Source: Nitrososphaerota archaeon (GTDB taxonomy: Archaea; Thermoproteota; Nitrososphaeria_A; Caldarchaeales; Calditenuaceae). Taken from it: a stretch of DNA of 24,000 bases. Below the pieces are notes generated by a model that saw only the letters and a program-made list of their open reading frames with translations, was not told the DNA's origin and did not search any database. A program made the translations under genes and the position numbers. Shown here piece by piece: positions 2,885-22,241 of this stretch. Position 1 is the stretch's first letter. Every line of letters begins with the position of its first letter. The stretch is from the NCBI GenBank assembly GCA_033581555.1, contig JAVQSZ010000005.1, positions 111,537 through 135,536 on the forward strand. The letters run 5' to 3'.

Positions 2885-2891
2885 CAGTCTC

Positions 2892-3164: not shown

Positions 3165-3189
3165 CGAGATCGAGTGACCTCTCATCTCG
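3165..3189 (-). terminator. Stem-loop just downstream of the nucleotidyltransferase stop codon
   Basis: Minus-strand RNA reads CGAGAU-GAG-AGGUCA-CUC-G-AUCUCG (6 bp + 3 bp stem, 6-nt loop), about 18 nt after the TGA at 3209-3207. Function not established. Confidence 0.25.
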
Positions 3190-3206
3190 CGGTAGCCCCC
3201 GACTCA

Positions 3207-4211: not shown

Positions 4212-4237
4212 CCTCGTTTCTCTCCAGCCTCAAGCAG

Positions 4238-5713: not shown

Positions 5714-5883
5714 CCTGAGCTTCTCCTGCAGCGAGAAGGTTATCCCTCTGGTCTGCGCGCCGTCCCTAAGGGTGGTGTCCAGAGTCTCGACGTAATCGAT
5801 CCGACCACCCCGCGACCCGCGGCGGAGTGCGCCACGATATCAACGTATGCTCCGCGCCGACGCCCACAGATCGCAGAGCTTAG

Positions 5884-5891
5884 GTAAATTA
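5884..5891 (+). promoter_or_regulatory. TATA-like box for the P-type ATPase gene
   Basis: GTAAATTA, about 20-24 nt upstream of GTG 5908. Confidence 0.35.
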
Positions 5892-5907
5892 CCCCCGGGT
5901 CCGGCAA

Positions 5908-8640: not shown

Positions 8641-9313
8641 CGTCGCCTCTCCCCGAGGTCAGCCTCATGACCCTGTCGGTGACCTCGCCGAGCATCCCAC
8701 CAGGCAGCTCGACCTGACAGACCCAGGAGCCGTCCCCCTTCCACTCCTCCTTCACTATCCTCCCAACGCCGCGCAGGTATCCGCTGACCCTAGGCTGCGC
8801 GTCGCCCGGCGACCTGACCTCGACCGTTATCTGGACGATCTTGATCGGGAGGACGGTCCTCAGCCTCTCCATCACCTTCCCGACCTGCTCCGAGGCCTCC
8901 GCGAACGGATCGATCTGGACGCCTACCTCCTTCATCGCGAGCTCGATCCTCTGGGGCGGTATCGGCGCGTTGGTCCTGGGGTCGATCGCGTTCCTCGCGA
9001 TCAGGTCGATCACCTTCCTCCGCTTCTCCTCGATCAGGGCCCTCCTCTGCTCCGCGGTGAGCTGGACCTCGCCCTCCCTCACGATCGTCAGGGCGATCTG
9101 GTAGGGGTCGGTGGTCCCGAAGGCCTTCCTCAGCTCCTCCTCCTTCGCCCTGATCCCCTTCTTCGCGTCCCTGTAGACCTCTGGGTAGACGAGGACCTTC
9201 TGAGATGGCTGGGCCTGACCGAGCCTGATCTTCAGGGCCAAGTCCGGGTCCACGAGCACCTCGAAGGTCTCGCCCCGCTTCGTCATCCTAGCGATCGTGT
9301 AGTTCTGCGGCAA
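8627..9313 (-). CDS. SBDS-family ribosome maturation protein (Sdo1 homologue)
   Basis: N-terminal FYSH-like [22 protein letters not shown]..., with the size (228 aa) and three-domain layout typical of archaeal SBDS. The TTG start at 9313 is needed to include the conserved N-terminal strand. The 3' end overlaps the ATPase 3' end by 14 nt (convergent). Confidence 0.85.
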
Positions 9314-9357
9314 CTCCCTCGCACCTCACGGGACTTCCTCTCGGGAGGCTTTAGCAG

Positions 9358-10425
9358 TTAGCCCGTCGGTTTCGAAGCTCCGGAGCGGCGCTTCCCGTCA
9401 CTATTGCCTCGCCCGTGCCTCGCAGCGACCGCGAACCACAGGCCCCCGCCAGCGTGGACGAACCTCGCCCTCCCGAAGCCCGAACGCGAGAGGAGCGACG
9501 AGAGCTCCCTCCTCGAGAGCATCGACCCTCCCTGCAGAGCGTAGTCGAGCGCGATGAACCTAAGGAGCGCGTCCTGCCTCGAGTCGCCCGTCCTTTCGGA
9601 GAGCCCCTCCGCCACGACCAGGAGCCCGCCGCGCCTCAGCGCCCTTCGGGCCGACCTCAGGACCCCGAGCCTGTCGGAGGCGACGCAGAGGACCTCGCCG
9701 AGGTAGACCAGGTCGAACTCCTCCCCGAATTCCAGCGACTCGCTGGTGCCCTCGACGAACGTCAAGCGGTCCGAGAGTCCAGCTTCCTCTGCCCTCCTCC
9801 TCGCGACCGAGATCGCGGCGCCGTCAGGGTCCACGCCGACCGCGGAGGCCGCTGAATACCTCAGGCAGAGCTCGACCGCCCACCCGCCGGTCCCGCAGCC
9901 GATGTCGAGGGCCCTCGCGCCCCTCTCGAGGACCGACCGCAGCCCCCTCACCCTCGGGACGACGAGCTCGAAGAAGGCCAAGTGGTCCCACCTCGTCGCC
10001 TCCGCGTACGCCTCTGTCAGGTGCCTCGCCCCATCGCTGTCGGCGCTCCCGCGGCCGAAGAGGGCGTCGAAGAGGTGGTAATCGAGGCTCCTCAGCGCCA
10101 GGTAGGAGAGCAACCCGCCGACGTAGCGGTGATCCCGATCGTCCAGGATGAGCGCCCTCGCGTCGCCCTTCAGCGCGTACCTCCCTCGCCTTCCCTTCAG
10201 CAGGCCCAGCTCGGCGGCCGCCTCGCACCAGAGCCCTACAGCCTTCCTGTCCAGACCCGTCAGCCTCGCGATCTCGCCGGGCCCCGCCCCCCTCCCCAGC
10301 CCGTCGAGCGCCCTCAGCAGCCCGTACCTCCTCCCCAAGTGAGCGACCCAGACCGACGCGAAGCCGGCCGCGCTCTCCCACGGGTCGAACAACTCTGGAC
10401 CACCCACGGCCCCAGAGGGAGGCAT
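9358..10425 (-). CDS. Class I SAM-dependent methyltransferase with N-terminal winged-helix/dimerisation-like domain
   Basis: Motif I ALDIGCGTGGWAVEL, followed by VGVDPD and LVVAEG strands. The N-terminal ~150 aa resemble the wHTH region of O-methyltransferase-like proteins. The substrate cannot be inferred. Confidence 0.75.
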   Translation of the reverse strand: MPPSGAVGGPELFDPWESAAGFASVWVAHLGRRYGLLRALDGLGRGAGPGEIARLTGLDRKAVGLWCEAAAELGLLKGRRGRYALKGDARALILDDRDHRYVGGLLSYLALRSLDYHLFDALFGRGSADSDGARHLTEAYAEATRWDHLAFFELVVPRVRGLRSVLERGARALDIGCGTGGWAVELCLRYSAASAVGVDPDGAAISVARRRAEEAGLSDRLTFVEGTSESLEFGEEFDLVYLGEVLCVASDRLGVLRSARRALRRGGLLVVAEGLSERTGDSRQDALLRFIALDYALQGGSMLSRRELSSLLSRSGFGRARFVHAGGGLWFAVAARHGRGNSDGKRRSGASKPTG

Positions 10426-10502
10426 GAGATTAACCGCTGATCAGGTCCCCACGCGGTCGACGTGTCTCGTTTACTAGGCGGCACCGATGGTCTCCGCGGG
10501 GA

Positions 10503-12296
10503 ATGAGCGGGTTCCTGAAGATGAGGGTCGCGGTCCTGGAGCTGGAGAGGTGCCAGCCCGACAAGTGCGGGACGCCCTGCATCACCTTCTGTCCTCCCGT
10601 GAGGAACGGCATCGAGGCGATCAGGCTGGCCTCCAATGGCTTCCCCGAGGTCAACGAGGAGCTCTGCATAGGGTGCGGGATCTGCGTCGCGAAGTGCCCG
10701 TTCGAGGTCATCACGATCGTGAACCTCCCCACCGAGCTCGGGGAGGACCTCGTCCACCAGTACGGCGTGAACGCCTTCAGGCTCTATAGGCTCCCCCACG
10801 TCGAGCAGGGGAAGGTCGTCGGGGTCCTCGGGAGGAACGGCATCGGGAAGTCGACGGCCTTTAGGGTCCTCTCGGGTCAACTGGTCCCGAACCTCGGAAG
10901 GCTTGAAGGGAGGGCGAGGTGGGAGGACGTCCAGCTGAAGTTCAGGGGGACGGTCCTCCAGGACTACTTCAGGAGGGTCGCGTCCGGTCAGGTCAGGGTC
11001 GTCTTGAAGCCCCAGCAGATCGAGCAGATCTCCAGGGCAGTCAAGGGCACGGTGAGGGAGCTCCTGAGGAGGGCCGCGGGAGGGGAGGGGTACGAGGGGG
11101 TGACGAGGGAGCTCGAGCTGGACCGGATCCTCGACAGGGACGTCTCCGTACTCAGCGGCGGAGAGCTGCAGAGGCTCGCGATAGCCGCGGCGATCCTGAA
11201 GGGCGGCGACGTGCTGCTCTTCGACGAGCCGACGAGCTTCCTCGACATCAGGCAGAGGTTCAGGGTGGCGTGGGTCATCAGGGAGCTGGCCGCGAAGGGG
11301 AGGGGCGTGCTGGTCGCGGACCACGACCTCGCCTTCATGGACTACGTCTCGGACGTAGTCTTCGTCCTCTACGGCGACCCCTCGGTCTACGGGGTGGTCT
11401 CGGGGCCCTACGGCTCGAGGGAGGGGATCAACGACTACCTCGAGGGTTACCTGCCGCTCGACAACGTGAGGTTCAGGAGCTACAGGATCGCGTTCCAGGT
11501 CAAGGGCCCCGAGGAGCAGCGCGAGGAGTCCGGATGGGGCCTCTACTGGCCCGAGATGACCAAGACCTTCGAGGGCTTTAGGCTCAAAGTCCCCGAGGGC
11601 GGAATCGGAAGGGGCGAGGTCCTCGCTGTGGTGGGGCCCAACGGCACCGGGAAGACGACCTTCGTGAAGCTGCTGGCCGGCCAGCTCGAGGACGACAGCG
11701 GCCTAAGGCTCGAGTACGCCTCCGTCAGCTACAAGCCCCAGCACCCGGTCCCGAGGCCCGAGACGGTCGAGGAGGTCCTCAAGGCCGCAGCGGGTGATAG
11801 GTTCGAGGGCGAGTTCGTCCAGTCGGAGCTGATCAGGCCACTGAGGATAGACAAGTTGGCGGAGAGGAGGCTCGACGAGCTGAGCGGCGGCGAGCTCCAG
11901 AAGGTCTCGATAGTCGAGGCGCTCTCGAGGGACGCGAAGATCTACCTGCTCGACGAGCCGAGCGCCTTCCTCGACGTCGAGGAGAGGTACAACGTCGCGA
12001 AGACCATCAGGAGGATCGCCGCCGACCTCGGCGCCCACGTCGTCTTGGTCGAGCACGACCTGATGATCGTCGACTTCGCCGCGACCAAGGTGATGGTCTT
12101 CACCGGCGAGCCCGGCGTGAGGGGGGAGGCCCTGCCGCCCTCGGACCTGAGGACTGGCTTCAACGCGCTGCTCAAGGAGCTCGGCGTGACGTTCAGGAGG
12201 GACCACGAGACCAAGCGGCCGCGGGTCAACAAGCCTGGATCGAGGCTCGACAGGCACCAGAAGGAGGTCGGCGAGTACTACTACCTCTCGGCCTAG
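10503..12296 (+). CDS. ABCE1 / RNase L inhibitor-type ribosome recycling ATPase
   Basis: N-terminal 2x[4Fe-4S] domain (CQPDKCGTPCITFCP ... CIGCGICVAKCP). Two NBDs with Walker A GRNGIGKST / GPNGTGKTT, signatures LSGGELQR / LSGGELQK, and Walker B LLFDEPTSFLD / YLLDEPSAFLD. A GTTTACTA box at 10469-10476 favours ATG 10503. ATG 10521 (MRVAVLE...) is the alternative. Confidence 0.95.
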   Translation: MSGFLKMRVAVLELERCQPDKCGTPCITFCPPVRNGIEAIRLASNGFPEVNEELCIGCGICVAKCPFEVITIVNLPTELGEDLVHQYGVNAFRLYRLPHVEQGKVVGVLGRNGIGKSTAFRVLSGQLVPNLGRLEGRARWEDVQLKFRGTVLQDYFRRVASGQVRVVLKPQQIEQISRAVKGTVRELLRRAAGGEGYEGVTRELELDRILDRDVSVLSGGELQRLAIAAAILKGGDVLLFDEPTSFLDIRQRFRVAWVIRELAAKGRGVLVADHDLAFMDYVSDVVFVLYGDPSVYGVVSGPYGSREGINDYLEGYLPLDNVRFRSYRIAFQVKGPEEQREESGWGLYWPEMTKTFEGFRLKVPEGGIGRGEVLAVVGPNGTGKTTFVKLLAGQLEDDSGLRLEYASVSYKPQHPVPRPETVEEVLKAAAGDRFEGEFVQSELIRPLRIDKLAERRLDELSGGELQKVSIVEALSRDAKIYLLDEPSAFLDVEERYNVAKTIRRIAADLGAHVVLVEHDLMIVDFAATKVMVFTGEPGVRGEALPPSDLRTGFNALLKELGVTFRRDHETKRPRVNKPGSRLDRHQKEVGEYYYLSA

Positions 12297-13627
12297 GGCC
12301 CGACTCCCTGCAAGGTATCTCGCCCCTCGCGGTCTCGGCCCCTCCTCCCCGGCCCGCTCGTCCTGCCGGACCTCGCCCTCTTGGACGGACCGCTCTGGGA
12401 GTCGGCGACGATCACGTACCTCCTCGGGTAGGGGATCTCGATCCCGTTAGCCCTGAACTCTTTGTGGATCTGGTAGAGGAGCTCCCTCGCCAGCTGGAAG
12501 CCCGTTGTTTGGTCCTTCGCCCTCACCAGCAGCCTCAGCCTTATCCCCGACTCTCCCAGCTCCATCACCTGGACCTGCGGGAGCCCTGGCGCCGGCAGGA
12601 AGAGCGGGTGCCGCTCCGCGAGCTCCCTCATGATGCTCATAGCCTTGTCGAGGTCGCTCTCGTAGCTCACGTCGACGAAGACCGGGACCAGCATCGTCGG
12701 GTCTATGGCAGAGTAGTTCACGATTACCTCCGACTGGAAGACCGAGTTCGGGACCACGAACCTCCTGTTGTCCCAGGTCCTGAGGATAGTGTGGAACAGC
12801 TTGATGTCCTCCACGAAGCAGAAGTCGTTCCTAAACATCAGCGCCTCGCCTATCCTGAACGGGTGCGAGAGCGAGATCATCAGCCCCGAGATCAGGTTCG
12901 AGAGCGTCGACTGGGCCGCGAGGCCTATCACGATCGAGAGGAACCCGGCCGCGATCAGGGATGACGTCGCGATCCCGAGGAGCTCCGGGAACGTCACCAG
13001 CAGCGCCGCCAGCGCCCCGAGGAGTCCGACGAAGATGACTAGTACTCTCCGGATGAAGGTGAACGCGGTCATCGAGCTCTGATCGGTCGCGACCCTCTCG
13101 TAGAGAGCGCGGGTCAACAGGAGGTCGAGGACGGCCGCGGCGACGTAGGCGACCAGCAGACCAGTGAAGAGGTTCAGCACTCTCCACCAGAACTCGGAGA
13201 TCTGTGGTGCGATGTGGGAGCGGAGGACGATCTGCGTCGCCGCTATCACGCTCAGCAGCAGCACTCCCGCGTTCAGGACCCTCCCTATGCCTCTCTCAGC
13301 GACCTTCTCGACCGTGAGGTCAGAGACCTGACTGATCAGCGCCCTCACCGCCAGCGCCAGCGCGACGATCCCCGCGACGAATCTGGGGTTGTTCGGGTCC
13401 AAGTACGGCGAGAGGTCCGCAGGGAAGACCTGGACCAGCTCCGCGAACGCCAGCGCTACCAGGTTGCCGACGACCAGGGCTAGCAGCGCGGCCCTTAGCC
13501 TCAGCAGGAACCTCCTCACGCCCGCGATCCCCTGCAGCCTCTGGGCCATCCTCCCCATCAGGTACCAGGCTCCGACCGCGAAGGCGACGGTCACCGCTGT
13601 CTCCAGGATCAGCCCCAGAGGGACCAC
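12293..13627 (-). CDS. MscS-family mechanosensitive ion channel
   Basis: Multiple N-terminal TM helices, then the MscS core GLAAQSTLSNLISGLMISLSHPFRIGE and a beta/alpha-beta C-terminal domain, ending in an Arg/Gly-rich tail. GTG 13627 is ~27 nt downstream of TAAATA (minus strand of 13652-13657). Confidence 0.9.
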   Translation of the reverse strand: MVPLGLILETAVTVAFAVGAWYLMGRMAQRLQGIAGVRRFLLRLRAALLALVVGNLVALAFAELVQVFPADLSPYLDPNNPRFVAGIVALALAVRALISQVSDLTVEKVAERGIGRVLNAGVLLLSVIAATQIVLRSHIAPQISEFWWRVLNLFTGLLVAYVAAAVLDLLLTRALYERVATDQSSMTAFTFIRRVLVIFVGLLGALAALLVTFPELLGIATSSLIAAGFLSIVIGLAAQSTLSNLISGLMISLSHPFRIGEALMFRNDFCFVEDIKLFHTILRTWDNRRFVVPNSVFQSEVIVNYSAIDPTMLVPVFVDVSYESDLDKAMSIMRELAERHPLFLPAPGLPQVQVMELGESGIRLRLLVRAKDQTTGFQLARELLYQIHKEFRANGIEIPYPRRYVIVADSQSGPSKRARSGRTSGPGRRGRDREGRDTLQGVGP

Positions 13628-13672
13628 GCCCGCGGCCTCTGAGCCCGACGCTATTTACCGAGCGCGTCACGG

Positions 13673-13788
13673 TGCGGGGGGTGGGATTCGAACCCACGAA
13701 CCCCTTCCGTCTGGCCGAGCCTACGGGGAGCGGCTGCCCCATCGCCGGATCTTGAGGCCGCCGCCGTTGACCGCTTGGCTACCCCCGC
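13673..13788 (-). tRNA. tRNA-Leu(CAA) carrying two introns (about 15 nt at 37/38 and about 17 nt in the variable arm)
   Basis: Reverse complement: GCGGGGG-TA-GCC-AAGCGGTCAAC-GGC-G-GCGGC-CUCAAG[AUCCGGCGAUGGGGC]A-GCCGC-UCCCCGUAG[GCUCGGCCAGACGGAAG]GGGUUC-GUGGG-UUCGAAU-CCCAC-CCCCCGC-A. The acceptor, anticodon and T stems all pair perfectly once the two insertions are removed. Exact intron borders are ambiguous by 1-2 nt. No encoded CCA. Confidence 0.85.
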
Positions 13789-13812
13789 CATCCCCGTGAA
13801 CCGCTCCGTTAG

Positions 13813-13819
13813 GGATAAA
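13813..13819 (-). promoter_or_regulatory. TATA-like box for tRNA-Leu
   Basis: TTTATCC on the minus strand, 25-31 nt upstream of tRNA position 1 (13788). Confidence 0.4.
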
Positions 13820-13909
13820 CGTCTCGCCGGGTCGGAGGCCTCGCTCGCCTCGCGAATGGGTTTTAGGCGACGCTGCCAGATCGTCGCAGGGGTGTCGATC
13901 AGGAGGGCG

Positions 13910-15766
13910 ATGGAGGAGGCCCGAAAGGCGCTCGAGAGGGCTGGCGTCAGGGAGCCGAGGGTCGTCCCCACCAAGAGCCTCGCGTTCGGGATCGTGACCA
14001 GCACCTCGGCCTTCGAGGAGGCGAAGGAGAGGGGGATCGACGCGATGGCCTACGCAGAGGAGGTCGCGGCGAGGGCGAGGCAGCACACTGGGCCGCTGCT
14101 CGCGGAGGTCAGGGCCGCCCAGCCCGGCTACGTCAACTTCTACCCCGACTGGAGGAGGTTCTCAGAAGACGTCGTGAGGGGGGTCCTCGAGGACGTGAGG
14201 TCGTTCCTCTACGAGGGCCTCGGCGGCGGCGAGGTGGTGGTCGAGCACACGAGCGTCAACCCCAACAAGGCCCTCCACGTCGGCCACGCGAGGAACGTCT
14301 GCATCGGCGACACGGTCTACAGGCTGATGTCGAAGGCCGGGAGGAGGGTCACGGTCCTCAACTACGTCGACGACAGCGGCGCCCAGATGGCCGAGCTCCT
14401 CCTCGGTTTCACCGAGCTCGGGTTCGACCTGAACCCCCCGCCGGGCATGAGGTTCGACGAGTACTGCGGCGACTCGGTCTACGTCGAGGTGAACAGGCGC
14501 GCGAAGGTCGACCCCGAGATCGAGGCGAAGAGGAGGAGGGTCGCGAAGGAGTTGGAGGAAAGAGGCTCGGACGCGTTCAAGCTCTCGAGGGAGATAGCTC
14601 TGAGGGTCCTGAGGGACCAGCTAAGCACCTGCTACAGGCTCGGCGCGAGCTACGACCTCCTCGTGAGGGAGAGCGACGTCGTGGTCTCCGGCCTCTGGGA
14701 CGAGGCCTTCTCGAGGCTGAAGGAGAGCGGGGCCGTCTACCTGGCCGACCGCGGGTCGAAGGCCGGGTGTTGGGTCGCGGACCTCTCCGGCCACCCGGTG
14801 CTCTCGAAGGAGGGGGACGAGGTCCTGGTGAAGAGCGACGGCTCTACCACCTACGTCGCGAGGGACATAGGGTTCGCGCTCTGGAAGCTCGGCGAGTCGA
14901 GGACTTCGCTGAGGTTCTCCCTCTGGGACGTCAGGGACGGCAGGCCCACGTACATCTCGTCTGAAGAGGGCGTGTCTCTGAGGCCCAACTCCCCGAGCCT
15001 CGTGATCACTGTGGTCGACTCGAGGCAGAGGCGCCCGCAGGAGGTCGTGAGGTACGCGCTCTCGAGGATCGGCGTCAGCGCAGACAGGTACCTCCACTAC
15101 TCCTACGAGCCCGTCCTCCTCTCCAAGAGGTCCGCGGAGATGCTCGGGGCGAAGGCGGAGCGGTCCGCGGTCCAGATGAGCGGGAGGGAGGGGATCTATT
15201 TCAAGGTCGAGCAGGTCCTCGACAAGCTGGTCGAGGTCGCGGCCAGGGAGACGTCGTCGAGGAGGCCCGAGTGGCCGTCCGAGAGGGTCCGGGAAGTGGC
15301 TGAGGCGATCGCGGTCGGCGCGTTCAGATACGGGATGCTGAAGGTCGACAGCGACAAGCAGATCGTCTTCGACATCGAGGAGTCCCTCAGGCTCGAGGGC
15401 GACACGGGACCGTACCTACAGTACTCGGTCGTGAGGGCGAGGAAGATCTTGCTGAAGGCGGAGGAGGCAGGAGTCGAACCGTCGCCAGCTCCCTCAGAGG
15501 ACCTCACGCCGCACGAGATGCAGCTGGTGAGGGAGGTCTCCGTCGCGCCGCTCGCCCTTGAGGACACCGTCAAGGCCTTGAGGATAAGGACGCTCGTGAC
15601 CCAGGCCAGGACGCTCGCGACCGTGTTCAACGAGTTCTACGAGAGCTGCCCTGTGATCGGGGGAGGTCCGAACGCCGGCTTCAGGCTCAGCTTGGTCGCC
15701 GCGTACGCCAGGGTACAGGAGGAGTTGCTGGAGACGCTCGGCGTTCCGGTCCTCGACGAGCTGTAG
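13910..15766 (+). CDS. argS: Arginyl-tRNA synthetase
   Basis: Class I HIGH region EHTSVNPNKALHVGHARN, and a C-terminal DALR-type anticodon-binding region. ATG 13910 is preceded by AGGAGGG (13901-13907) and leaves ~115 aa before the HIGH motif, as in other archaeal ArgRS. The track start 13775 would overlap tRNA-Leu and its promoter. Confidence 0.93.
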   Translation: MEEARKALERAGVREPRVVPTKSLAFGIVTSTSAFEEAKERGIDAMAYAEEVAARARQHTGPLLAEVRAAQPGYVNFYPDWRRFSEDVVRGVLEDVRSFLYEGLGGGEVVVEHTSVNPNKALHVGHARNVCIGDTVYRLMSKAGRRVTVLNYVDDSGAQMAELLLGFTELGFDLNPPPGMRFDEYCGDSVYVEVNRRAKVDPEIEAKRRRVAKELEERGSDAFKLSREIALRVLRDQLSTCYRLGASYDLLVRESDVVVSGLWDEAFSRLKESGAVYLADRGSKAGCWVADLSGHPVLSKEGDEVLVKSDGSTTYVARDIGFALWKLGESRTSLRFSLWDVRDGRPTYISSEEGVSLRPNSPSLVITVVDSRQRRPQEVVRYALSRIGVSADRYLHYSYEPVLLSKRSAEMLGAKAERSAVQMSGREGIYFKVEQVLDKLVEVAARETSSRRPEWPSERVREVAEAIAVGAFRYGMLKVDSDKQIVFDIEESLRLEGDTGPYLQYSVVRARKILLKAEEAGVEPSPAPSEDLTPHEMQLVREVSVAPLALEDTVKALRIRTLVTQARTLATVFNEFYESCPVIGGGPNAGFRLSLVAAYARVQEELLETLGVPVLDEL

Positions 15767-15813: not shown

Positions 15814-15907
15814 GGGCCGGTAGATCAGCGGCAGATCGCCCGGTTCGCACCCGGGTGACGCGAAGGGCGTCCGGGAAAGGTCCGGGGTTCGAATCCCCGC
15901 CGGTCCA
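15814..15907 (+). tRNA. tRNA-Ala(CGC) with a ~22-nt intron
   Basis: GGGCCGG-UA-GAUC-AGCGGCA-GAUC-G-CCCGG-UUCGCAC-CCGGG-[UGACGCGAAGGGCGUCCGGGAA]-AGGUC-CGGGG-UUCGAAU-CCCCG-CCGGUCC-A. The G3:U70 alanine identity pair is present. The insertion contains its own hairpin GACGC-GAAGG-GCGUC. A duplicated CCGGG makes the exact intron position ambiguous: after the anticodon stem, or the canonical 37/38 site in another register. Confidence 0.85.
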
Positions 15908-15972: not shown

Positions 15973-16047
15973 CGGGCCCGCCGGGACTCGAACCCGGGAC
16001 CTCCGGCTCCGCAGGCCGGCGCCCTGTCCATGCTAGGCCACGGGCCC
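15973..16047 (-). tRNA. tRNA-Arg(GCG), intron-less
   Basis: Reverse complement: GGGCCCG-UG-GCCU-AGCAUGGACA-GGGC-G-CCGGC-CUGCGGA-GCCGG-AGGUC-CCGGG-UUCGAGU-CCCGG-CGGGCCC-G. It is 75 nt with all stems paired. Confidence 0.9.
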
Positions 16048-16070
16048 TCCGGTCGTCAACGCCTCTGCTC

Positions 16071-16080
16071 GTTTTATTAA
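16071..16080 (-). promoter_or_regulatory. TATA-like box for tRNA-Arg
   Basis: TTAATAAAAC on the minus strand, 24-33 nt upstream of tRNA position 1 (16047). Confidence 0.4.
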
Positions 16081-16218
16081 CTTCCCGAGACCTCCGGCGG
16101 CAGGTCCTGATCGCGCGCATCGCCCATCCCGGATACTCTCCCCTTATCGGAATGGAGTTAGGGGCTCGATGAGCTGACACCGCCACGCTCAACACGTGCG
16201 CGGCATAGTCGACGGGAA

Positions 16219-16274
16219 GCCTGATCAGATGCTGACGAAATGGGAGCAGAGGGCTGAAGTGATGGTGATCAGGC
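16219..16274. repeat. 9-bp perfect inverted repeat (GCCTGATCA ... TGATCAGGC) enclosing a 38-nt loop in a non-coding tract
   Basis: 16219-16227 is the exact reverse complement of 16266-16274. The loop contains CUGA and GUGAUGG-like elements, but no complete C/D-box arrangement could be built. Confidence 0.5.
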
Positions 16275-16427
16275 GGGTCCGAAGTCTTGCAGTTCCTCTA
16301 CTCTGTGAAGGACGGTGGTCTCTTACCGGGCCAAACCCCTCATCGCGCTCGGTGGTCAAAGGCAGCCTTTAATGGATTGAAAAGCGCCCGATCATTACGA
16401 TTATCGAACCAAAAAGAGTCTAGATTT

Positions 16428-16451
16428 GTTGTGACAACCGCACGTGGTGCG
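16428..16451. promoter_or_regulatory. Two adjacent palindromes upstream of the cstA promoter (candidate regulator binding sites)
   Basis: GTTG-TGA-CAAC (16428-16438) is followed directly by CGCAC-GTG-GTGCG (16439-16451, contains CACGTG). They lie about 55-80 nt upstream of the GATATAT box at 16506-16512. Confidence 0.3.
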
Positions 16452-16505
16452 CCATTCGGCAGATCTTCCAGGTTAAGCAACGCATTAACACAATGATCGT
16501 AAAAT

Positions 16506-16512
16506 GATATAT
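16506..16512 (+). promoter_or_regulatory. TATA-like box for cstA
   Basis: GATATAT, 26-32 nt upstream of ATG 16538. Confidence 0.4.
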
Positions 16513-16537
16513 GCCAGCAAGTGTCAGTACATGCGCA

Positions 16538-18292
16538 ATGGTGTTCGAGACGCCCTTCGGTATAACGATGGTCGGCATCGTGATATTCCTGTTGACGTTC
16601 TTCACGTACAGCAGATGGGTCGACAGGAGGGTCTGGAGCCCCGATCCGAAGAGGCCGACACCGGCGCACATGTACATGGACGGCGTCGAGTTCTTCCCGG
16701 TCTCGAGGTTCGTGCTCTACGGGTTCCAGTGGAACTCCATCGCAGCGTTGGGACCGATCCTCGGACCCGGAATAGCTCTGACCTTCGGGTGGCTGCCCGC
16801 GTTCCTCTGGATCGTATTAGCTGCCCTGCTGATCGGGTGGGTCCAGGACTACAGCTCGATGTTCCTCTCGGTTAGGAAGGAGGGGAGGTCCTTCGGTCCG
16901 ATCGCGTACGAGCTGCTGGGCCCGACGCCTAGGAGGCTGCTGCTCGGGTTCCTGCTCTTTTACTTGCTTTTGATCAACGCGGCGTTCCTCTTCGTCGTGG
17001 CGACCGTCGTGGACGCGTTCGCGGGCGCGTTCTGGTCACTGTTAGTCCTCGTGATAGCCGCGGTCATTACCGGCCACCTTCTCTTCAAGGTGAAGATGCC
17101 CGTGGTGCAGGTCACACTGATCGCGGTCGTGTTGCTCGCGATCGGAGTCGTCATCGGAGCCATCTTCAACTGGCCTCCGCCGGGGACGCTGGGCACAGCT
17201 CCCTACACGCTCTGGTACGTTCCGCTGATCGCGCTCCTGGTGGCCGGCGCGATCCTCCCCATGCCCCGGCTGATCACGCCCATGAACTACATCGCCTACT
17301 ACACGCTCTTCCCGGCGGTCATCATGCTCGCGGTTGGGGCCCTCGCTTCGATCGTGACTGGCGTGAAGGTCAACACCCCAGCGTTCACGTCGTTCTTCGG
17401 TCCTTTCGCGACCGGACCGCTGTGGCCGGCGTTGTTCGTGAGCATAGCTTGCGGCGCCATCTCAGGTTGGCACAGTCTGGTGAGCACCGGCCTGACCAGC
17501 AAGCAGATCGACGTCGAGACTGACGTGAGGCCCGTGGGCGCCGGAGCCATGCTGAGCGAGAACCTCGTGGGTCTAACCTCGCTCGCCGCTTGGATCGTGT
17601 TGCCTGCGGGGACCGCGGTAGCGCCCGCGAACTTCCCGAGGGGCGCAGTGACGCTGACCAGCCCGGTCTTCGGAGGAGCCGCTATGGCGCCTTACCTGGC
17701 GATATTCTTCGCTAGCTACATGGTCGGGATGGCCGTCACGATCCTGACTATCCTCGGGAGGTTCTGGAGGGTGACGATGGCCGAGATCTTCTCGGGGACG
17801 TCGCTCAACTTCCTCGGAAACAAGTACGTCGCGACCGTGCTGGGGTTCGTGCTGCCGGTGGCGTTCGTACTGACCGGTTCGTGGATCAACATCTGGCTAT
17901 ACTTCGGGGGCACCAACCAGCTGCTGGCAGGGTTCGCGCTGCTGATCGTAGGGCTCTACCTGTTCTCCCTCAGGAAGTTCCACTGGTACAGCACCATCCC
18001 GGGCCTCTTCATGATGGTGACGACGCTGGCCGCGATCGCCTGGCAGACCAACGTGTTCGCCACTGCGACCATCAACCCGGTCATCAGGAGGCCCGACGGC
18101 ACCATCGCCCCGTTCTTCCCGCAGCAGGCTCCGCTGCTCAACCTAGGAGGTCCGGGAGCGCTGACGGCGATCAACGCCTTCTCGACCGTGATGGGTATGA
18201 TCATGTTCGTGATCGGGCTGATGATGGCGATCTTCTTCATCAGAGCCTTCCTGAGGTACGCGAGGCAGCCGACTCAGCCCACCGCGACCTAA
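16538..18292 (+). CDS. cstA: Carbon starvation protein A (CstA) family transporter (peptide/pyruvate transporter family)
   Basis: Close motif-level match to E. coli CstA as I remember it: DPKRPTPAHMYMDGVEFFP, LYGFQWNSIAALGPILGP (cf. LFGHHFAAIAGAGPLVGP), GWVQDYSSMFLSVRKEGRSFG (cf. GAVQDFMVLFVSTRRDGRSLG), IACGAISGWHSLVSTGLTSKQ, NQLLAGFALL. ATG 16538 is preferred over the track start 16511 because of the TATA spacing. Confidence 0.9.
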   Translation: MVFETPFGITMVGIVIFLLTFFTYSRWVDRRVWSPDPKRPTPAHMYMDGVEFFPVSRFVLYGFQWNSIAALGPILGPGIALTFGWLPAFLWIVLAALLIGWVQDYSSMFLSVRKEGRSFGPIAYELLGPTPRRLLLGFLLFYLLLINAAFLFVVATVVDAFAGAFWSLLVLVIAAVITGHLLFKVKMPVVQVTLIAVVLLAIGVVIGAIFNWPPPGTLGTAPYTLWYVPLIALLVAGAILPMPRLITPMNYIAYYTLFPAVIMLAVGALASIVTGVKVNTPAFTSFFGPFATGPLWPALFVSIACGAISGWHSLVSTGLTSKQIDVETDVRPVGAGAMLSENLVGLTSLAAWIVLPAGTAVAPANFPRGAVTLTSPVFGGAAMAPYLAIFFASYMVGMAVTILTILGRFWRVTMAEIFSGTSLNFLGNKYVATVLGFVLPVAFVLTGSWINIWLYFGGTNQLLAGFALLIVGLYLFSLRKFHWYSTIPGLFMMVTTLAAIAWQTNVFATATINPVIRRPDGTIAPFFPQQAPLLNLGGPGALTAINAFSTVMGMIMFVIGLMMAIFFIRAFLRYARQPTQPTAT

Positions 18293-18341: not shown

Positions 18342-18614
18342 ATGGGTAAGGGCGGTTTTCTTTCGTCGATGAAGAAGGCGCTGTCTGAGGTCACATACGG
18401 AGCCGCGCTGCACGGTCAGGTCTCCGCGGTCCTCAAGACGAGGATGTACATCGAGCACATGTTCATACTGATGATACTGGGCGACATGCTAGGGTTCCCG
18501 ATACTCCCGCCCTACTACTCGCTGAGGCTGCTGCCGTACGCAGTCCCCAACGTCAAGGCTTGGAAGCACAGGTTCTACAGGGAGAGGGACTTCACCGACG
18601 TGATCTACGGGTGA
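18342..18614 (+). CDS. Small (90 aa) hydrophobic protein; possible divergent YbdD/YjiX (DUF466)-like CstA partner with an inserted hydrophobic segment
   Basis: Coding-type codon bias. Motifs YIEHM and FYRERDFTDVIYG(stop) parallel YVEHM and FFRERQDARYGG of E. coli YbdD/YjiX (recalled from memory), in the same order. The gene lies directly downstream of cstA, as ybdD does. The central segment MFILMILGDMLGFPILPPYYSLRLLPYAV is hydrophobic. Its stop TGA 18612-18614 overlaps GTG 18611. Confidence 0.6.
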   Translation: MGKGGFLSSMKKALSEVTYGAALHGQVSAVLKTRMYIEHMFILMILGDMLGFPILPPYYSLRLLPYAVPNVKAWKHRFYRERDFTDVIYG

Positions 18615-19612
18615 TTCGGGTGGCCTGGGGCTTAAGGGACGTAGTCCTGAGGGACGGAGGCCCCCGGATGGTCATCTTCGCGGGAAAGGGAGGCCTCGGG
18701 AAGACGACGAGCAGCGCAGCCCTTGCGTACGCCGCGGCCCTCTCCGGCAAGAGGGTGCTCTGCTTCAGTACCGACCCGCAGGCCAGCCTCAGCGACATCT
18801 TCGAGCGGGACATCTTCGGGAAGGGCGAGGTCGAGGTGGCCAGGAACCTCTACGTCGTCGAGATAGACGCAGACGCGAAGATCAGCGCCTACATAGCAGA
18901 GGTGAAGCAGAGGATCAGGGACATGTACAAACTCGAGGAGATCCCGGCCGAGATCGAGGCCTACATCGACAGCTCGGTCGCGGAGCCCGCGATGTACGAG
19001 TCAGCGACTTACGACGCGATGGCCGACTACCTCGCGAGGGGCGACTACGACCTGTACGTCTTCGACATGCCGCCCTTCGGTCACGGGATCAGGATGCTCA
19101 CGATGGCCGACGTCCTGACCAGCTGGGTCGAGAAGCTCACGGAGGTCCGTGAGAAGGCCAGGGAGTACGACGAGATCGCGAGCAGGCTGAAGGGCGAGAG
19201 GCTGATCAAGGAGGACGAGATCCTGAACGAGCTGAAGGCCATCAAGGACAAGCTGACGACCTTCACCGACTTCATGAGGGACAAGACAAAGTCAGCCTTC
19301 TTCATGGTCATGACCCCCGAGATGATGTCCGTCCACGACACCGAGAGGGCCCTTCAGGCCTTCAGGTCGATCGGCCTCACCCTCTCCGGGATAGTCCTGA
19401 ACAAGGTCCTCCCGAAGGAGCTCGGGTCGAACCCGTCGCCGTACATCTCCTACAGGTACAAGCAGCAGGAGGCGGTCCTGAAGGTGATAGAGGAGAAGTT
19501 CGGGGACCTCGTCGTCGCCGCGATCCCGATGTTCCCGAGGGAGCCGAAGGGCCTCGAGGGGCTGAAGGAGGTCGCCAAGCACCTCGTCGACGGGGTGACG
19601 AGGGTGTGGTGA
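18611..19612 (+). CDS. ArsA/Get3-family P-loop ATPase, subunit 1 (catalytic motifs mostly intact)
   Basis: Deviant Walker A AGKGGLGKTT. The ArsA/Get3 switch I region reads FSTDPQASLSD (cf. STDPAHSLSD). Switch II reads FDMPPFGHGIRML (cf. DTAPTGHTLRLL). GTG 18611 is chosen because of the GTGA overlap with the small ORF and because the RDGGP segment before the P-loop is shared with subunit 2. ATG 18668, preceded by GGAGG at 18656-18660, is a strong alternative. Confidence 0.85.
   Translation: MIRVAWGLRDVVLRDGGPRMVIFAGKGGLGKTTSSAALAYAAALSGKRVLCFSTDPQASLSDIFERDIFGKGEVEVARNLYVVEIDADAKISAYIAEVKQRIRDMYKLEEIPAEIEAYIDSSVAEPAMYESATYDAMADYLARGDYDLYVFDMPPFGHGIRMLTMADVLTSWVEKLTEVREKAREYDEIASRLKGERLIKEDEILNELKAIKDKLTTFTDFMRDKTKSAFFMVMTPEMMSVHDTERALQAFRSIGLTLSGIVLNKVLPKELGSNPSPYISYRYKQQEAVLKVIEEKFGDLVVAAIPMFPREPKGLEGLKEVAKHLVDGVTRVW
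18648..18664 (+). repeat. 17-mer TGAGGGACGGAGGCCCC, copy 1 (16/17 identical to 19610-19626)
   Basis: Direct comparison of the two regions preceding the P-loops of the tandem ATPase genes. Confidence 0.8.
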
Positions 19613-20607
19613 GGGACGGCGGCCCCATAACCGGGGAGCACAGGTTCGTCTTCGTCGGAGGAAAGGGGGGCGTCGGGAAGACGGTACTCGCGGCCGCGTT
19701 GGCCTACGACGCGACGCTCCACGGCAAGAGGGTGCTACTGGCGAGCCTCAACCCAGTCCACTCACTCACGAGCCTCTTCGGTCAGGACCTAGCGGGCGGG
19801 AAGCTCACGAGGATCGAGGGCGCTGAAGGCCTTGACGCGATCGAGGTCGAGATAGATGACCTAGTCCGGGACTATAAGGCCAAGATGACCGGGAGGCTGA
19901 GGGAGTTCTTCAGGTGGGCGGAGGTCCCCATCAACCCCGATCCTTTCATAGAGGTCGCGACGACGAACCCAGCCTTCCACGAGTCCGCGATGTTCGACCG
20001 CGTGATGGACCTCATCCTCGAGGCGGGAGGGAAGTACGACCTGGTGGTCTTCGACACTGCTGCGGTCGCTAACGCGGTGAGGTTGATCGGGCTCAGTAAG
20101 CTCTACGGCCTCTGGCTCGCGAGGATGATCCAGTCGAGGAGGGAGGCGCAGCAGTTCAGGCTCAGCCTCTCCTTCAGGAAGGAGAAGGTGATGGAGGAGA
20201 TCAAGAGGGACCCGGTGATCGCGGACCTCATCGCCCTCCACGAGAAGTTCACGAAGACCAGGGAGGTGATAACTGACCCGAAGCTCACGGGCTTCTACTT
20301 CGTAACGACTCCTGAAAGTCTGCCGATCTCCGTCGTGGTGAGGTTCATCAAGATGGTTGAGGCCTTCAACATCCCGGTAGGCGGTGTCTTCGTGAACAAC
20401 GTGATCGACGCCTCCGAGGCGTCCTCCGACCCCTCCGGGTACCTGTCAGCTAAAGTGGAGGAGCAGCGCAGGTACCTGAAGATGATCGCGGAGCAGATGG
20501 GCGACAAGGTGAAGGGCTACGTGAGGTCGTTCCCGAGCGAGGTGAGGGGCATCGAGGCCTTGAGGGCTGTCGTCGAGGACCTGAGGGGCTACAGGCCGAG
20601 CTTCTGA
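19606..20607 (+). CDS. ArsA/Get3-family P-loop ATPase, subunit 2 (degenerate switch I/II, probably non-hydrolytic)
   Basis: Walker A is intact (GGKGGVGKT). Switch I reads ASLNPVHSL, with Asn in place of the catalytic Asp of TDPAH. Switch II reads FDTAAVANAVRL, so the P-T-G-H of DTAPTGHT is lost. GTG 19606 overlaps the subunit-1 stop (19610-19612) by 7 nt. No other canonical start exists before the P-loop. Confidence 0.85.
   Translation: MVRDGGPITGEHRFVFVGGKGGVGKTVLAAALAYDATLHGKRVLLASLNPVHSLTSLFGQDLAGGKLTRIEGAEGLDAIEVEIDDLVRDYKAKMTGRLREFFRWAEVPINPDPFIEVATTNPAFHESAMFDRVMDLILEAGGKYDLVVFDTAAVANAVRLIGLSKLYGLWLARMIQSRREAQQFRLSLSFRKEKVMEEIKRDPVIADLIALHEKFTKTREVITDPKLTGFYFVTTPESLPISVVVRFIKMVEAFNIPVGGVFVNNVIDASEASSDPSGYLSAKVEEQRRYLKMIAEQMGDKVKGYVRSFPSEVRGIEALRAVVEDLRGYRPSF
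19610..19626 (+). repeat. 17-mer TGAGGGACGGCGGCCCC, copy 2
   Basis: See 18648-18664. Here the TGA is the stop codon of subunit 1. Confidence 0.8.
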
Positions 20608-20623: not shown

Positions 20624-21094
20624 TTGAGGAGGAACAGGTTCGACCTCTTCACCGGCAACATCGTCATCGGGACTTACAGGTTCCTCACGCTGGTCCTGCC
20701 GGAGGGCTGGGCGGTCCAGAGGAGCAGGGCGCCCTCGGACATCTACTACACCGGCGTCGTGCAGGGGAAGGGCTGGGTGACGGAGGGCTACGCGCACTAC
20801 TACCTCACGAACCTCGTGACCGGCGAGCGGTACGACCTCCTCATCGAGGTCAAGAAGGGCGCGAAGGGCGTGGACCTGACCGAGCAGTCGGAGCTCACGA
20901 CGTTCTCCGGCCACTCCGCCTCCGTCAGCAAGAGGGTCTACTCCGTCGGCCTCTTCAGGAAGAGGGAGGTCAGGGAGGTTACCATCAAAACCGCCTGCCA
21001 GCTGACCTCGAGGACGATCGCGATCCAGATCAGCTCCCAGGAGGACCTGCCAAGTGAGGTCCTGGAGGCCCTCTCGGAGTCGGAGTGCCACTAG
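20624..21094 (+). CDS. Hypothetical protein (156 aa, predicted mostly beta, C-terminal SESECH)
   Basis: Strong G/C third-position bias in this frame. TTG 20624 is preceded by GAGGGG (20616-20621), 17 nt after the ArsA-like subunit 2 stop. I recognise no motif. Confidence 0.6.
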   Translation: MRRNRFDLFTGNIVIGTYRFLTLVLPEGWAVQRSRAPSDIYYTGVVQGKGWVTEGYAHYYLTNLVTGERYDLLIEVKKGAKGVDLTEQSELTTFSGHSASVSKRVYSVGLFRKREVREVTIKTACQLTSRTIAIQISSQEDLPSEVLEALSESECH

Positions 21095-21146: not shown

Positions 21147-21770
21147 GTGGATGTCGACCCGCTGTACGTCGTCGCGGCCATCGCGGTCATCCTGATCGCC
21201 CTCTCGATCGCCGGGAACGTGGCAGGTAGGAGGAGGGTCGACGCGGCGGTAATAGCGGTGGTGGACGCGGTGAGGTCGCTGGGCGGCGAGCTGAAGCTCG
21301 TCGGGAGGACCTCCTCCGCGGCGCTCCTTAAGGGATCCGGGCTCAGGCCGATGAAGGAGTTCTCGGTCATGATAGGCCTCGTCCCCAGGGGGAGCCCCCT
21401 CGCCCTCCTGGTCGCGAAGCTCGCCGGCAGGAAGGACCTTGTGATGATAAGGGGCGCCTTGGAGAGCGAGCCTCCGATGAACATCGCGGTCTTCGCGAAG
21501 GGTGCGGGCGTCGAGAGGCACGCGAAGAGGTGGGGGAAGGAGGTCAAGGACCTGGGAGGGCTGGTCGTCGCCTACGACGGCGCGGACCTTCAGCTCGACC
21601 TCTCGAAGCTGGAGCCGCTCCGGAGCACCGGCGCCATCATGCTGGCCCTCCGCGACCACCTCCCTCACGTCTACGCTTACATCAGCCTAGAGTCCGACAT
21701 CAGGTCCTCTCTCTCCGCGGTCCTGACCGGGCTCAACGAGCTCCAGAGGGCGGCGCGGCGGGGTACTTAG
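21147..21770 (+). CDS. Hypothetical protein with a single N-terminal transmembrane anchor (about 207 aa)
   Basis: From GTG 21147: MDVDPLYVVAAIAVILIALSIAGNVAGRRR..., a TM helix followed by a positive patch and a soluble domain. Coding-type codon bias. The track start 21054 would overlap the preceding gene by 41 nt and add an Arg/Ser-rich extension. No recognised motif. Confidence 0.6.
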   Translation: MDVDPLYVVAAIAVILIALSIAGNVAGRRRVDAAVIAVVDAVRSLGGELKLVGRTSSAALLKGSGLRPMKEFSVMIGLVPRGSPLALLVAKLAGRKDLVMIRGALESEPPMNIAVFAKGAGVERHAKRWGKEVKDLGGLVVAYDGADLQLDLSKLEPLRSTGAIMLALRDHLPHVYAYISLESDIRSSLSAVLTGLNELQRAARRGT

Positions 21771-21794: not shown

Positions 21795-21818
21795 CCGATC
21801 CGGTGCGTGAGACGGCAG

Positions 21819-22241
21819 ATGGCAGGCTCGATCCAGCTGAGGGTCGTCTTGCTCGACGTCTACCCGACGCAGCTGGGCCACTGCCCGCACTACAATCTGG
21901 TCTCGTCGCAGATGATGGCGGCGGGCTCCGAGTTCTGCGAGCTCTCCTCCCAGGCCCTCGAGTACCCGCAAGAGGTCATCGAGAGTCACAGGAGGGCACT
22001 CGCGGTCTTGAACGTCCTGAGGAGGGCCCTGGACGGAAAGGAGGTCAACGTCGAGGTCGAGATGGTCGACGCGCTCTCCCCCAAGGGCTTCCTGCTCTCC
22101 CTCAGGTACGGCGTGAGGGGGAATTTCGCGGTCGTCGTCAACGGGAAGAAGGTCTACGACGGCGAACCCAGCGTGGAGGCCGTCGAGCGTGCGCTTGAGG
22201 ACTACGTCTCGGAAGCGTTGAACCTCAGGCGTGTGAGTTGA
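21819..22241 (+). CDS. Hypothetical protein with thioredoxin-fold-like pattern (Thioredoxin_3/ArsD-like) lacking a CxxC pair
   Basis: An N-terminal beta strand is followed by a lone Cys (LRVVLLDVYPTQLGHCPHY). The C-terminal GNFAVVVNGKKVYDGEPSVEAVERALEDY resembles the xPALVINGKVVxxGxxPSxEEI end of small thioredoxin-like proteins and the LPLLLLDGETVMAGRYPKRAEL end of ArsD. This is pattern recognition only. ATG 21819 is preferred over GTG 21807. Confidence 0.55.
   Translation: MAGSIQLRVVLLDVYPTQLGHCPHYNLVSSQMMAAGSEFCELSSQALEYPQEVIESHRRALAVLNVLRRALDGKEVNVEVEMVDALSPKGFLLSLRYGVRGNFAVVVNGKKVYDGEPSVEAVERALEDYVSEALNLRRVS

Follow-up and report, generated by a model that had tools for sequence, protein, structure and literature searches.

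What does a cell gain from two adjacent ATPases of the ArsA/Get3 fold when one of them has lost the aspartate on which hydrolysis in this family depends? The question is raised by a 24,000-nucleotide (nt) stretch of contig JAVQSZ010000005.1 from a Nitrososphaerota archaeon (positions 111,537 to 135,536; the whole stretch is called the window below), in which two such genes, S1 and S2, follow one another on the forward strand. The original prediction, made from the sequence of the window alone, was that the two products form an asymmetric heterodimer with one hydrolytic and one regulatory site, and that such split pairs are uncharacterised. The degenerate site of S2 proved to be real. The pair, which the prediction had treated as free-standing, turned out to belong to a conserved gene cluster around a CstA-family transporter, and this alters its probable function. 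The features of S1 and S2 used in the argument are:

18611..19612, + strand: S1, ArsA/Get3-fold ATPase, putative catalytic subunit, 333 amino acids (aa); Pfam ArsA_ATPase 2.2e-71
18767..18790, + strand: S1 switch I STDPQASL, aa 53-60, catalytic Asp55 kept (GAC, 18773-18775)
19061..19099, + strand: S1 switch II FDMPPFGHGIRML, aa 151-163, Walker B Asp and His kept, otherwise non-canonical
19606..19612, + strand: 7-nt overlap of S1 and S2 (S1 stop TGA 19610-19612, S2 start GTG 19606-19608; junction GTG TGG TGA / GTG GTG A)
19606..20607, + strand: S2, ArsA/Get3-fold subunit with degenerate catalytic site, 333 aa; Pfam ArsA_ATPase 2e-51
19660..19686, + strand: S2 deviant Walker A GKGGVGKTV, aa 19-27, both lysines kept, Val/Ile for the usual second Thr
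19744..19767, + strand: S2 switch I SLNPVHSL, aa 47-54, with Asn49 (AAC, 19750-19752) at the position of Get3 Asp57
20050..20085, + strand: S2 switch II FDTAAVANAVRL, aa 149-160, Walker B Asp kept, His of TGH absent
20170..20214, + strand: conserved charged segment SFRKEKVMEEIKRDP peculiar to S2, where Get3 has the helix-8/TRC40 insert

The motif strings on which the prediction was built are all present where it had placed them, and its motif register, on which the whole observation turned, is correct. HMMER alignment to the Get3 of Methanocaldococcus jannaschii (Mj; 3ug6) and the TRC40 of M. thermautotrophicus (Mth; 3zq6) sets SLNPVHSL of S2 on STDPAHSL ('llaslnpvhsl' against 'vivSTDPAHSL') and FDTAAVANAVRL on FDTAPTGHTLRL ('vvfdtaavanavrl' against 'viFDTAPTGHTLRF'), with top posterior probability and no gaps nearby. 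STDPQASL and FDMPPFGHGIRML of S1 align with the same archaeal Get3 motifs, the latter again opposite FDTAPTGHTLRL.

Asparagine in switch I and the His-less switch II together form a robust, conserved signature of the S2 clade. A protein search with S2 returned 5423 relatives at E<=1e-10, that is, the ArsA/Get3 family in the broad sense; the best 120 of these (52-93% identity), from Caldarchaeales, Thermoprotei, Sulfolobales, Njordarchaeia, soil archaea and one Anaerolineae, all carry S[LF]NP[VI]HS and FDTAAVANA[VAI]RL. Related loci were collected by a scan of 185,579 species genomes for close relatives only, which gave 39, and by targeted look-ups, which gave eight more. Among the S2 copies from these loci, 43 of 44 have both the Asn and the His-less switch II, the remaining copy being incomplete, and GKT[VI] likewise occurs in 43 of the 44. 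With Asn49 invariant in more than 160 orthologues, a sequencing error or a one-off mutation was ruled out. The nucleotide-binding elements have fared differently from the catalytic ones: S2 keeps its P-loop, as predicted, and in an alignment of 52 sequences every element that binds nucleotide is kept, the invariant positions being the P-loop G18-T26, N49, P50, H52, D150-A157 and the adenine-contacting Asn264. Because the P-loop and Asn264 are invariant alongside N49 and D150-A157, S2 appears to have been selected for nucleotide binding, with two elements used in hydrolysis and coupling missing. The charged segment SFRKEKVMEEIKRDP, which is at least 90% conserved across the S2 clade and stands opposite the Met-rich lid region of MjGet3 in the alignment, may be a partner-binding surface.

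S1 orthologues keep the catalytic Asp and His. Of 40 related S1 copies, 37 have Walker A (GKGGLGKTT, aa 25-33) and STDPQASL and three are incomplete sequences; FDMPPFGH is conserved in the consensus of the clade. Between the subunits, switch I is complementary, with Asp but no His in S1 (DPQAS) and His but no Asp in S2 (NPVHS). Held against the hallmarks of Get3/TRC40, the pair as a whole falls short: the switch I Asp of STDPAH[SN] is there in S1 and is Asn in S2, and in place of DTAPTGH S1 has DMPPFGH, with Asp and His kept, and S2 has DTAAVANA, without Gly-His. The CXXC zinc clamp is absent from both proteins, where 'CDFC' of MjGet3 lies opposite PSPYIS in S1 and PSGYLS in S2; S1 has a single cysteine and S2 none. 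Some accepted archaeal homologues likewise lack CXXC (PMC6593721).

The exchange found in S2 is one that has been engineered elsewhere. In yeast Get3 the residue that primes the attacking water is D57, and the intradimeric Lys exerts its effect from across the interface (PMC10248533). The D57N protein binds ATP and forms a closed dimer without hydrolysis, and it serves as a means of trapping the closed ATP state (PMC12506534); the title of PDB entry 9ns5, in the Foldseek match list for the S2 model, also concerns Get3 D57N. S2 Asn49 is the same change at the same aligned position. The yeast variant, however, is man-made and affects both subunits of a homodimer, whereas the Asn of S2 is natural, is fixed in one clade and is accompanied by a rebuilt switch II.

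Both proteins are bona fide members of the family, as alignment to the ArsA_ATPase model and to solved structures confirmed together with their catalytic positions. PF02374 (ArsA_ATPase) gave 241 bits for S1 and 175.5 for S2 (cut-off 24.3), NCBIfam TIGR00345 (GET3_arsA_TRC40) gave 231.7 and 178.8 (cut-off 135), and the deviant, intradimeric Walker A of the superfamily, GKGGhGK[ST], is found in S1 and S2 and is invariant in both clades. The two are 32% identical to each other. The best solved relative of S1 is Mth TRC40 (3zq6, 1.7e-54), and an AlphaFold2 (AF2) model of S2 (predicted local distance difference test score, pLDDT, 82; predicted template modelling score, pTM, 0.80) had Mth TRC40 and Mj Get3 as top Foldseek matches (TM 0.72-0.83), ahead of ArsA. 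A motif '(L/V)RDGGP' just before the first beta-strand is common to S1 and S2 of the window (18611-18680, 19606-19645) and is variable in orthologues of other orders.

The genes are tightly packed. S1 starts with GTG and overlaps the stop of a 90-aa open reading frame (ORF) upstream by 4 nt (GTGA); this start at 18611 is favoured over an alternative ATG at 18668 because the ATG would exclude conserved N-terminal 'GL..' residues that precede it. The 7-nt overlap between S1 and S2 is present as had been reported, and in related loci the two genes either overlap or are separated by at most about 70 nt, mostly by less than 20 nt. S2 lies in the -1 frame, and it was considered whether a programmed -1 frameshift joins S1 and S2 in a single ArsA-like chain, but this was rejected given that the junction varies among loci from overlaps to gaps of about 70 nt.

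S1 and S2 form distinct clades that are co-inherited and equally constrained, in agreement with what the prediction had proposed to examine by phylogeny. Identity is 46-100% within the clades and 23-35% between them, and in a mirror-tree comparison the pairwise distance matrices of S1 and S2 correlate with r=0.94 and a slope of 0.91, from which it follows that S2 is as constrained as S1. Wherever a related locus had enough flank, the order was small protein-S1-S2, and S2 never occurred without S1. More divergent lineages of the S2 clade are likewise without the Asp, reading STNPVHSL (with FDTAPTANARRL) or SLSTLHSL, and the STNP variant is again found behind a CstX fragment and an S1-like gene. 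One representative of the clade, P0140, has STNPAHSL together with a degenerate P-loop (GGKSSVGNTG), which suggests further decay toward a pseudo-ATPase in some lineages. Loss of the Asp in divergent lineages, plus loss of the P-loop in one, would fit a non-catalytic partner.

Two other arrangements of paired domains were seen. A short metagenomic contig carries a tandem ArsA/Get3-like pair (L047:2-1883) whose two members both have STDPSHSL and DTAPIGH, and hence Asp and Gly-His; the pair resembles the S1 and S2 profiles to the same degree and may be an unspecialised, ancestral-like one. Five representative proteins of about 640 aa (P0136, P0149, P0153, P0161 and P0167) are fused, two-domain chains with an S2-like/S1-like asymmetry in reverse order: the N-terminal half has GKT[VI] and D[TLM]AAG[AL]H, with SVNPAHSL in one of them (P0136), and the C-terminal half has GKGGCGKTT and S.DPQ.SL (STDPQRSL in P0136). 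Their halves prefer the S2 or S1 profile weakly (+6 to +40 and -7 to -59 bits), so that the Rosetta-stone support they lend is suggestive only.

The pair does not stand alone. It is the core of a conserved cluster, CstA-CstX-S1-S2-P156-CstY, which in the window is a tight array on the + strand (CstA, the 90-aa ORF, S1, S2, a 156-aa ORF, a protein of about 207 aa and a 144-aa ORF). Neighbourhood counts were obtained by iterative profile searches near the S1-S2 pair in 40 sources. The neighbours of the pair are:

16511..18292, + strand: CstA-family membrane transporter, 593 aa, about 15 hydrophobic segments; Pfam CstA 3.9e-103
18342..18614, + strand: CstX (DUF7990) small protein, 90 aa, whose stop overlaps the S1 start by 4 nt; identified through S1-adjacent orthologues
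20624..21094, + strand: P156, 156 aa, no family assignment; homologues near the pair in 27/40 sources
21147..21770, + strand: CstY-like protein, 207 aa from GTG 21147, single N-terminal membrane segment (KD19 2.55)
21807..22241, + strand: 144-aa protein with weak thioredoxin-like similarity, more loosely associated with the module; near the pair in 18/40 sources

CstA was near the pair in 34 of the 40 sources. The CstA of the window scores 2.6e-46 against the NCBIfam model of the pyruvate/proton symporter CstA, far below the equivalog cut-off. P156 had no Pfam or NCBIfam match; its homologue directly follows S2 or a second CstX in Sulfolobales, soil archaeal and Anaerolineae loci. CstY-like homologues were found in 27/40 sources; the mechanically called ORF starts at 21054, and the start at 21147 was deduced from a locus that is 93% identical (L005). 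The 144-aa protein matched the NCBIfam MJ0307-family thioredoxin model at E=0.0036, below the cut-off.

The small protein CstX is the most regular companion of the pair, being present in 38/40 sources and in 22/40 as two diverged copies, CstX1 and CstX2; no second copy was found in the 24-kb window. Precomputed Pfam annotation of related loci places the orthologues directly upstream of S1 in PF25952 (DUF7990). Few small proteins seem to be so highly conserved across archaeal phyla: in 38 sequences 29 of 90 columns are invariant, around the core LGDMLGxPxLPPYYSLRLLPY...WK.R.FRERDFTD. A hydrophobic element, borderline for a membrane segment (KD19 maximum 1.68), lies centrally, with about 30 conserved polar residues after it. 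AF2 gave a poor model (pLDDT 65, pTM 0.30), showing a long helix, a PPYY loop and two short helices with no confident tertiary fold. All 22 CstX1/CstX2 members match the NCBIfam 'cory-CC-star protein' model of Corynebacterium weakly and below the cut-off (best 8.6e-10), which suggests an actinobacterial counterpart of CstX, possibly one adjoining bagAB. A Pfam match of the 22 members to the family of E. coli YbdD/YjiX (DUF466) was not obtained at E<=1, a weak negative, the Pfam copy used being one without DUF7990.

The CstA/CstX/P156/CstY neighbourhood is kept in Caldarchaeales, Geothermarchaeota, Desulfurococcales, Sulfolobales, Thermoproteus, Bathyarchaeia, Korarchaeia-like, Asgard and soil archaea and in a few metagenome-assembled genomes (MAGs) of Bacillota and Anaerolineae. 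At a Sulfolobales locus, ATP-binding cassette (ABC) systems for peptides and amino acids and an M14 peptidase lie on the flanks of the module. In one Thermoprotei MAG (L001:4687-8527) the order is CstX1-S1-S2-CstX2, followed by a major facilitator superfamily (MFS) transporter in the place of CstA, with no CstA within 6 kb; this region is flanked by IS605/TnpB-type elements.

The remainder of the window is unexceptional. It is archaeal in character, with a G+C content of about 65% and presumably intron-containing tRNA genes, and its nearest relatives are Caldarchaeales/Calditenuaceae MAGs at 93% protein identity. Positions 1-15766 hold ordinary archaeal housekeeping genes, among them the following:

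1333-2433: Mrp/NBP35-type Fe-S carrier ATPase
5908-8640: P-type cation ATPase
10503-12296: ABCE1/RLI

The same part also encodes a NUDIX hydrolase, a LeuA/homocitrate-synthase-like enzyme, SBDS, a methyltransferase, an MscS-like channel and arginyl-tRNA synthetase. Three tRNA genes lie at 13673-13788, 15814-15907 and 15973-16047, of which the first two are long (116 and 94 nt) and probably contain introns; the 116-nt gene was detected by Rfam and missed by ARAGORN. Between the tRNA genes and cstA the G+C content falls to 0.58 (16001-17000).

Gene clusters of this type have been described before, and the claim of novelty is overstated. In an in silico study of 26 genomes, Castillo and Saier (2010) described CstA-CstX-ArsA operons, with single-domain ArsA homologues of about 330 aa, cstA, a cstX of about 90 aa and a cstY of about 210 aa in five archaea; Thermococcus kodakarensis is among the organisms with the operon (PMC2963123). 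They reported adjacent ArsA paralogues that are 25-31% identical (31% in one archaeon), found co-evolution of CstA, CstX and the ArsA homologues, noted that ars and cst genes never lie in one operon, and proposed that the ArsA homologue energises CstA via CstX (PMC2963123). The locus studied here is an ordinary member of that class: it has CstA (16511-18292), CstX (18342-18614) and a single-domain pair of 32% identity, and its CstY-like ORF, with one transmembrane segment (TMS), corresponds to the 'single TMS, ~210 aa CstY' of that study (PMC2963123), whose clusters 14-18 resemble it in the ~330-aa single domain, the presence of cstA and a ~90-aa cstX, and the absence of ars genes. Castillo and Saier, however, handled the ArsA homologues as one class; the two clades were not split, the Asn and the His-less switch II were not linked to one of them, and no asymmetric heterodimer was proposed. 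They stated that the SXD Asp of single-domain proteins 'can be substituted only by N' but did not tie this to one paralogue or draw a mechanistic conclusion, and, apart from two CstX duplications, neither the 156-aa protein nor the frequent second CstX was described (PMC2963123). What is new here is that the Asn/His-less signature has been traced to a single one of the two co-inherited paralogue clades, and that the module has been extended by the second CstX, the 156-aa protein and CstY across TACK, Asgard and other archaea. Literature searches on CstX, DUF7990 and Get3 with CstA returned nothing beyond Castillo and Saier, and no experiments on this archaeal family were found, so that the word uncharacterised stands in this sense; it does not extend to the existence of adjacent CstA-linked pairs, catalogued in 2010, or to the idea of a Get3-like heterodimer, for which a solved precedent exists (6bs3). 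More recent overviews of Get3-like proteins group the CXXC-less archaeal homologues and make no mention of CstA, heterodimers or the catalytic Asp (PMC6593721).

That precedent is BagA/BagB of M. tuberculosis (Rv3679/Rv3680), two adjacent Get3-like genes whose products, going by the entry names of PDB 6bs3, were crystallised together; the two have been implicated in protection against stress and not in arsenic resistance (PMC10597346). BagA/BagB are distant, and membership of S1 and S2 in that family was ruled out, as the scores (50.6 and 42.8 bits for S1, 47.7 and 34.6 for S2) are far below the model cut-offs of 400 and 521 (NF053622, NF053621). BagAB is not known to be linked to CstA. In both sequence and fold the pair comes closest to the archaeal Get3/TRC40 proteins (3ug6/3ug7, 3zq6; E 1e-41 to 1e-54, TM 0.72-0.83), with which it has in common the deviant Walker A, a helical subdomain of full length and the overall length. 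Those proteins, in contrast to S1-S2, are homodimers or homotetramers of one gene product with STDPAHS, DTAPTGH and a CXXC clamp, and they bind tail-anchored proteins; S1-S2 consists of two diverged subunits without CXXC, one of them without the catalytic Asp and the switch II His, in a fixed transporter neighbourhood. ArsA (E. coli and L. ferriphilum; 1f48, 9nbl/9nbo) resembles the pair in having two non-identical homologous halves and two interface nucleotide sites, and it is thought to energise a secondary carrier, ArsB, which is the functional analogy behind the model that we prefer. ArsA differs in that it is encoded in an ars operon as one fused chain of two domains, each of which has the Asp and DTAPTGH, and in that it carries three cysteines that bind metalloid, whereas S1 and S2 are separate genes beside cstA whose products lack the cysteine triad.

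An ATPase with one hydrolytic site and one site that binds ATP but is impaired in hydrolysis is the most economical reading of the S2 signature, the kept nucleotide-binding elements and the distinct, co-inherited clades. S1 and S2 would be the halves of an obligate heterodimer of the Get3/ArsA fold, a split natural counterpart of the ArsA pseudo-dimer, and it is very likely that they do pair. Two composite nucleotide sites would lie at the dimer interface, an arrangement shared with other deviant-Walker-A ATPases. The S1 site, with the water-activating Asp of switch I and the His of switch II, would hydrolyse ATP. The S2 site keeps the Mg-ATP binding set (both lysines of the P-loop, the Asp of Walker B and the Asn that contacts adenine). 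Since Asn stands at its catalytic position and the switch II His is missing, we propose that it holds ATP without turnover and acts as a latch or regulatory site; that it binds ATP and hydrolyses it poorly is, on the motifs, the probable case. S1-S2 would thus be the cytoplasmic ATPase module of a membrane system comprising CstA, one or two CstX, the 156-aa protein and CstY, in which CstX probably links the ATPase to CstA, and ATP binding and hydrolysis at S1 would energise or gate CstA in its uptake of carbon sources such as pyruvate or peptides, in the way that ArsA serves ArsB. The neighbourhood makes it highly probable that the function of the pair is tied to CstA/CstX; that this function is energising or gating transport, and not chaperoning, is argued by analogy and is a step about which we are slightly more doubtful than sure. 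As a whole, the transporter-coupled heterodimer is the reading that we rank first, with our confidence evenly poised. The start/stop overlaps of 7 nt between S1 and S2 and of 4 nt between CstX and S1, the loss of the zinc clamp in both subunits, the precedent of 6bs3 and the MFS carrier that takes the place of CstA in one Thermoprotei locus also count in its favour.

Several points weigh against this reading. CstA and BtsT of E. coli are proton symporters that work without any ATPase, so that ATP coupling is no requirement of the CstA family. Exchange of Asp for Asn in other SIMIBI ATPases (NifH D39N, ArsA D45 variants) alters catalysis and does not always abolish it. The catalytic competence of S1 is assumed, its switch II (DMPPFGHG) and switch I (DPQAS) being non-canonical. 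The tandem pair L047 is symmetric, which implies that asymmetry is derived in this clade and not universal among tandem pairs. Lastly, the nearest relatives of S1 and S2 in sequence and structure are the archaeal Get3/TRC40 tail-anchor chaperones and not ArsA, and a full-length helical subdomain of Get3-like hydrophobicity would suit a chaperone that binds clients no less well than it would the motor of a pump.

The last point leads to the reading that we place second, and which we consider rather unlikely: the heterodimer would be a dedicated Get3-type chaperone or targeting factor for the hydrophobic, Pro/Tyr-rich hairpin of CstX1/CstX2 or for the membrane segment of CstY. Its helical subdomains would form a groove and deliver or hold these clients for assembly of the CstA complex, with the S2 ATP latch keeping the groove closed until S1 hydrolyses. 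The closeness to archaeal Get3/TRC40 extends to client-bound Get3 structures; the helix 7-9 region is of full length, without ArsA-like shortening, and its hydrophobic fraction of 0.41-0.47 equals that of Mj and Mth Get3. CstX, with its invariant hydrophobic element, borderline membrane hydrophobicity and lack of a confident fold alone, is what would be expected if it were bound as a client or partner; the two different subunits are accompanied by two CstX paralogues in 22/40 sources, and a CXXC-less archaeal homologue is reported to dimerise and bind tail-anchored proteins (Farkas 2019, PMC6593721). Yet the helix-8 equivalents are charged and conserved and not Met-rich (2-3 Met against 6-9 in archaeal Get3), an objection tempered by the finding that Met is not required (Farkas 2019, PMC6593721); CstX is not tail-anchored, the module has no insertase gene, and a chaperone dedicated to one or two 90-aa proteins would be costly. 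Alternatively, the proteins might act separately, S1 as an ordinary homodimer and S2 as a homodimer with another catalytic residue or as an independent ATP-binding adaptor, their adjacency reflecting a shared pathway only. Single-domain family members are normally homodimers, heterodimerisation is deduced here from sequence, and L047 has both catalytic sets intact; the invariant order, the tight coupling and the strict co-inheritance at matched evolutionary rates argue against separate action, as do the loss of the homodimer zinc clamp from both proteins, the complementary switch I differences and the finding that S2 is never without S1, and we regard it as improbable. More improbable still is a general targeting factor for tail-anchored proteins, a housekeeping archaeal Get3 beside cstA by accident: TIGR00345 membership and the Get3-like fold would suit it, but the CXXC and the canonical switch II are absent, and the CstA/CstX linkage persists across archaeal phyla and, by apparent transfer, into bacteria, which is unexpected for a housekeeping factor. 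To a split ArsA driving an arsenite pump we give almost no credence. The source annotations read 'arsenite-transporting ATPase', both proteins match Pfam ArsA_ATPase and, in a study of Caldarchaeales MAGs, genes of this sort are included under arsenic resistance (PMC10547907), but the ArsA equivalog TIGR04291 gives 103 bits for S1 and 82.7 for S2 against a cut-off of 650, both proteins are single-domain and without the metalloid-binding cysteine triad, neither the window nor the related loci contain arsB, acr3, arsR, arsD or arsC, and ars and cst genes never share an operon (PMC2963123). On equivalog scores, missing cysteines and gene context, the arsenic pump was rejected.

Between the heterodimer as an energiser or gate of CstA and the dedicated chaperone, the data do not decide. 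The greater nearness to Get3 than to ArsA, the hydrophobicity of the helical subdomain and a CstX that apparently folds only when bound favour a groove holding a hydrophobic partner, and the two views can be merged if CstX is a constitutive 'client' that couples the ATPase to CstA. Carried to its end, this would make the seven-gene module (CstA, CstX1, S1, S2, CstX2, P156 and CstY) an unrecognised kind of ATP-driven or ATP-gated transporter, in which a heterodimer with one permanently ATP-latched subunit grips CstX hairpins in the groove that Get3 uses for tail anchors and a single hydrolytic site drives CstA, a bold and distinctly unlikely proposal. If it were true, then, as the module is present in Asgard and TACK archaea, CstX-in-groove could be near the ancestral state from which the client-carrying Get3 of the GET pathway evolved.

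The family is widespread, and the S1-S2 pair itself is represented in 39 of the 185,579 species genomes, where close relatives only were sought, and in further metagenomic loci, across TACK, Asgard and other archaea. It bears on whether CstA-type carriers can be ATP-coupled, as was proposed in 2010. One of its subunits carries, naturally and as a fixed trait, the counterpart of the Get3 D57N trap, and this provides a clean hypothesis, testable by mutation, on how Get3/ArsA dimers without CXXC couple their nucleotide state to work. Finally, 'arsenite-transporting ATPase' is the name that genes of this kind routinely receive, and archaeal MAG studies count them toward arsenic resistance (PMC10547907). 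The evidence presented here indicates that they are not arsenic pumps, and the CstA-linked pair is a likely source of the arsenic-resistance calls in surveys of that type.

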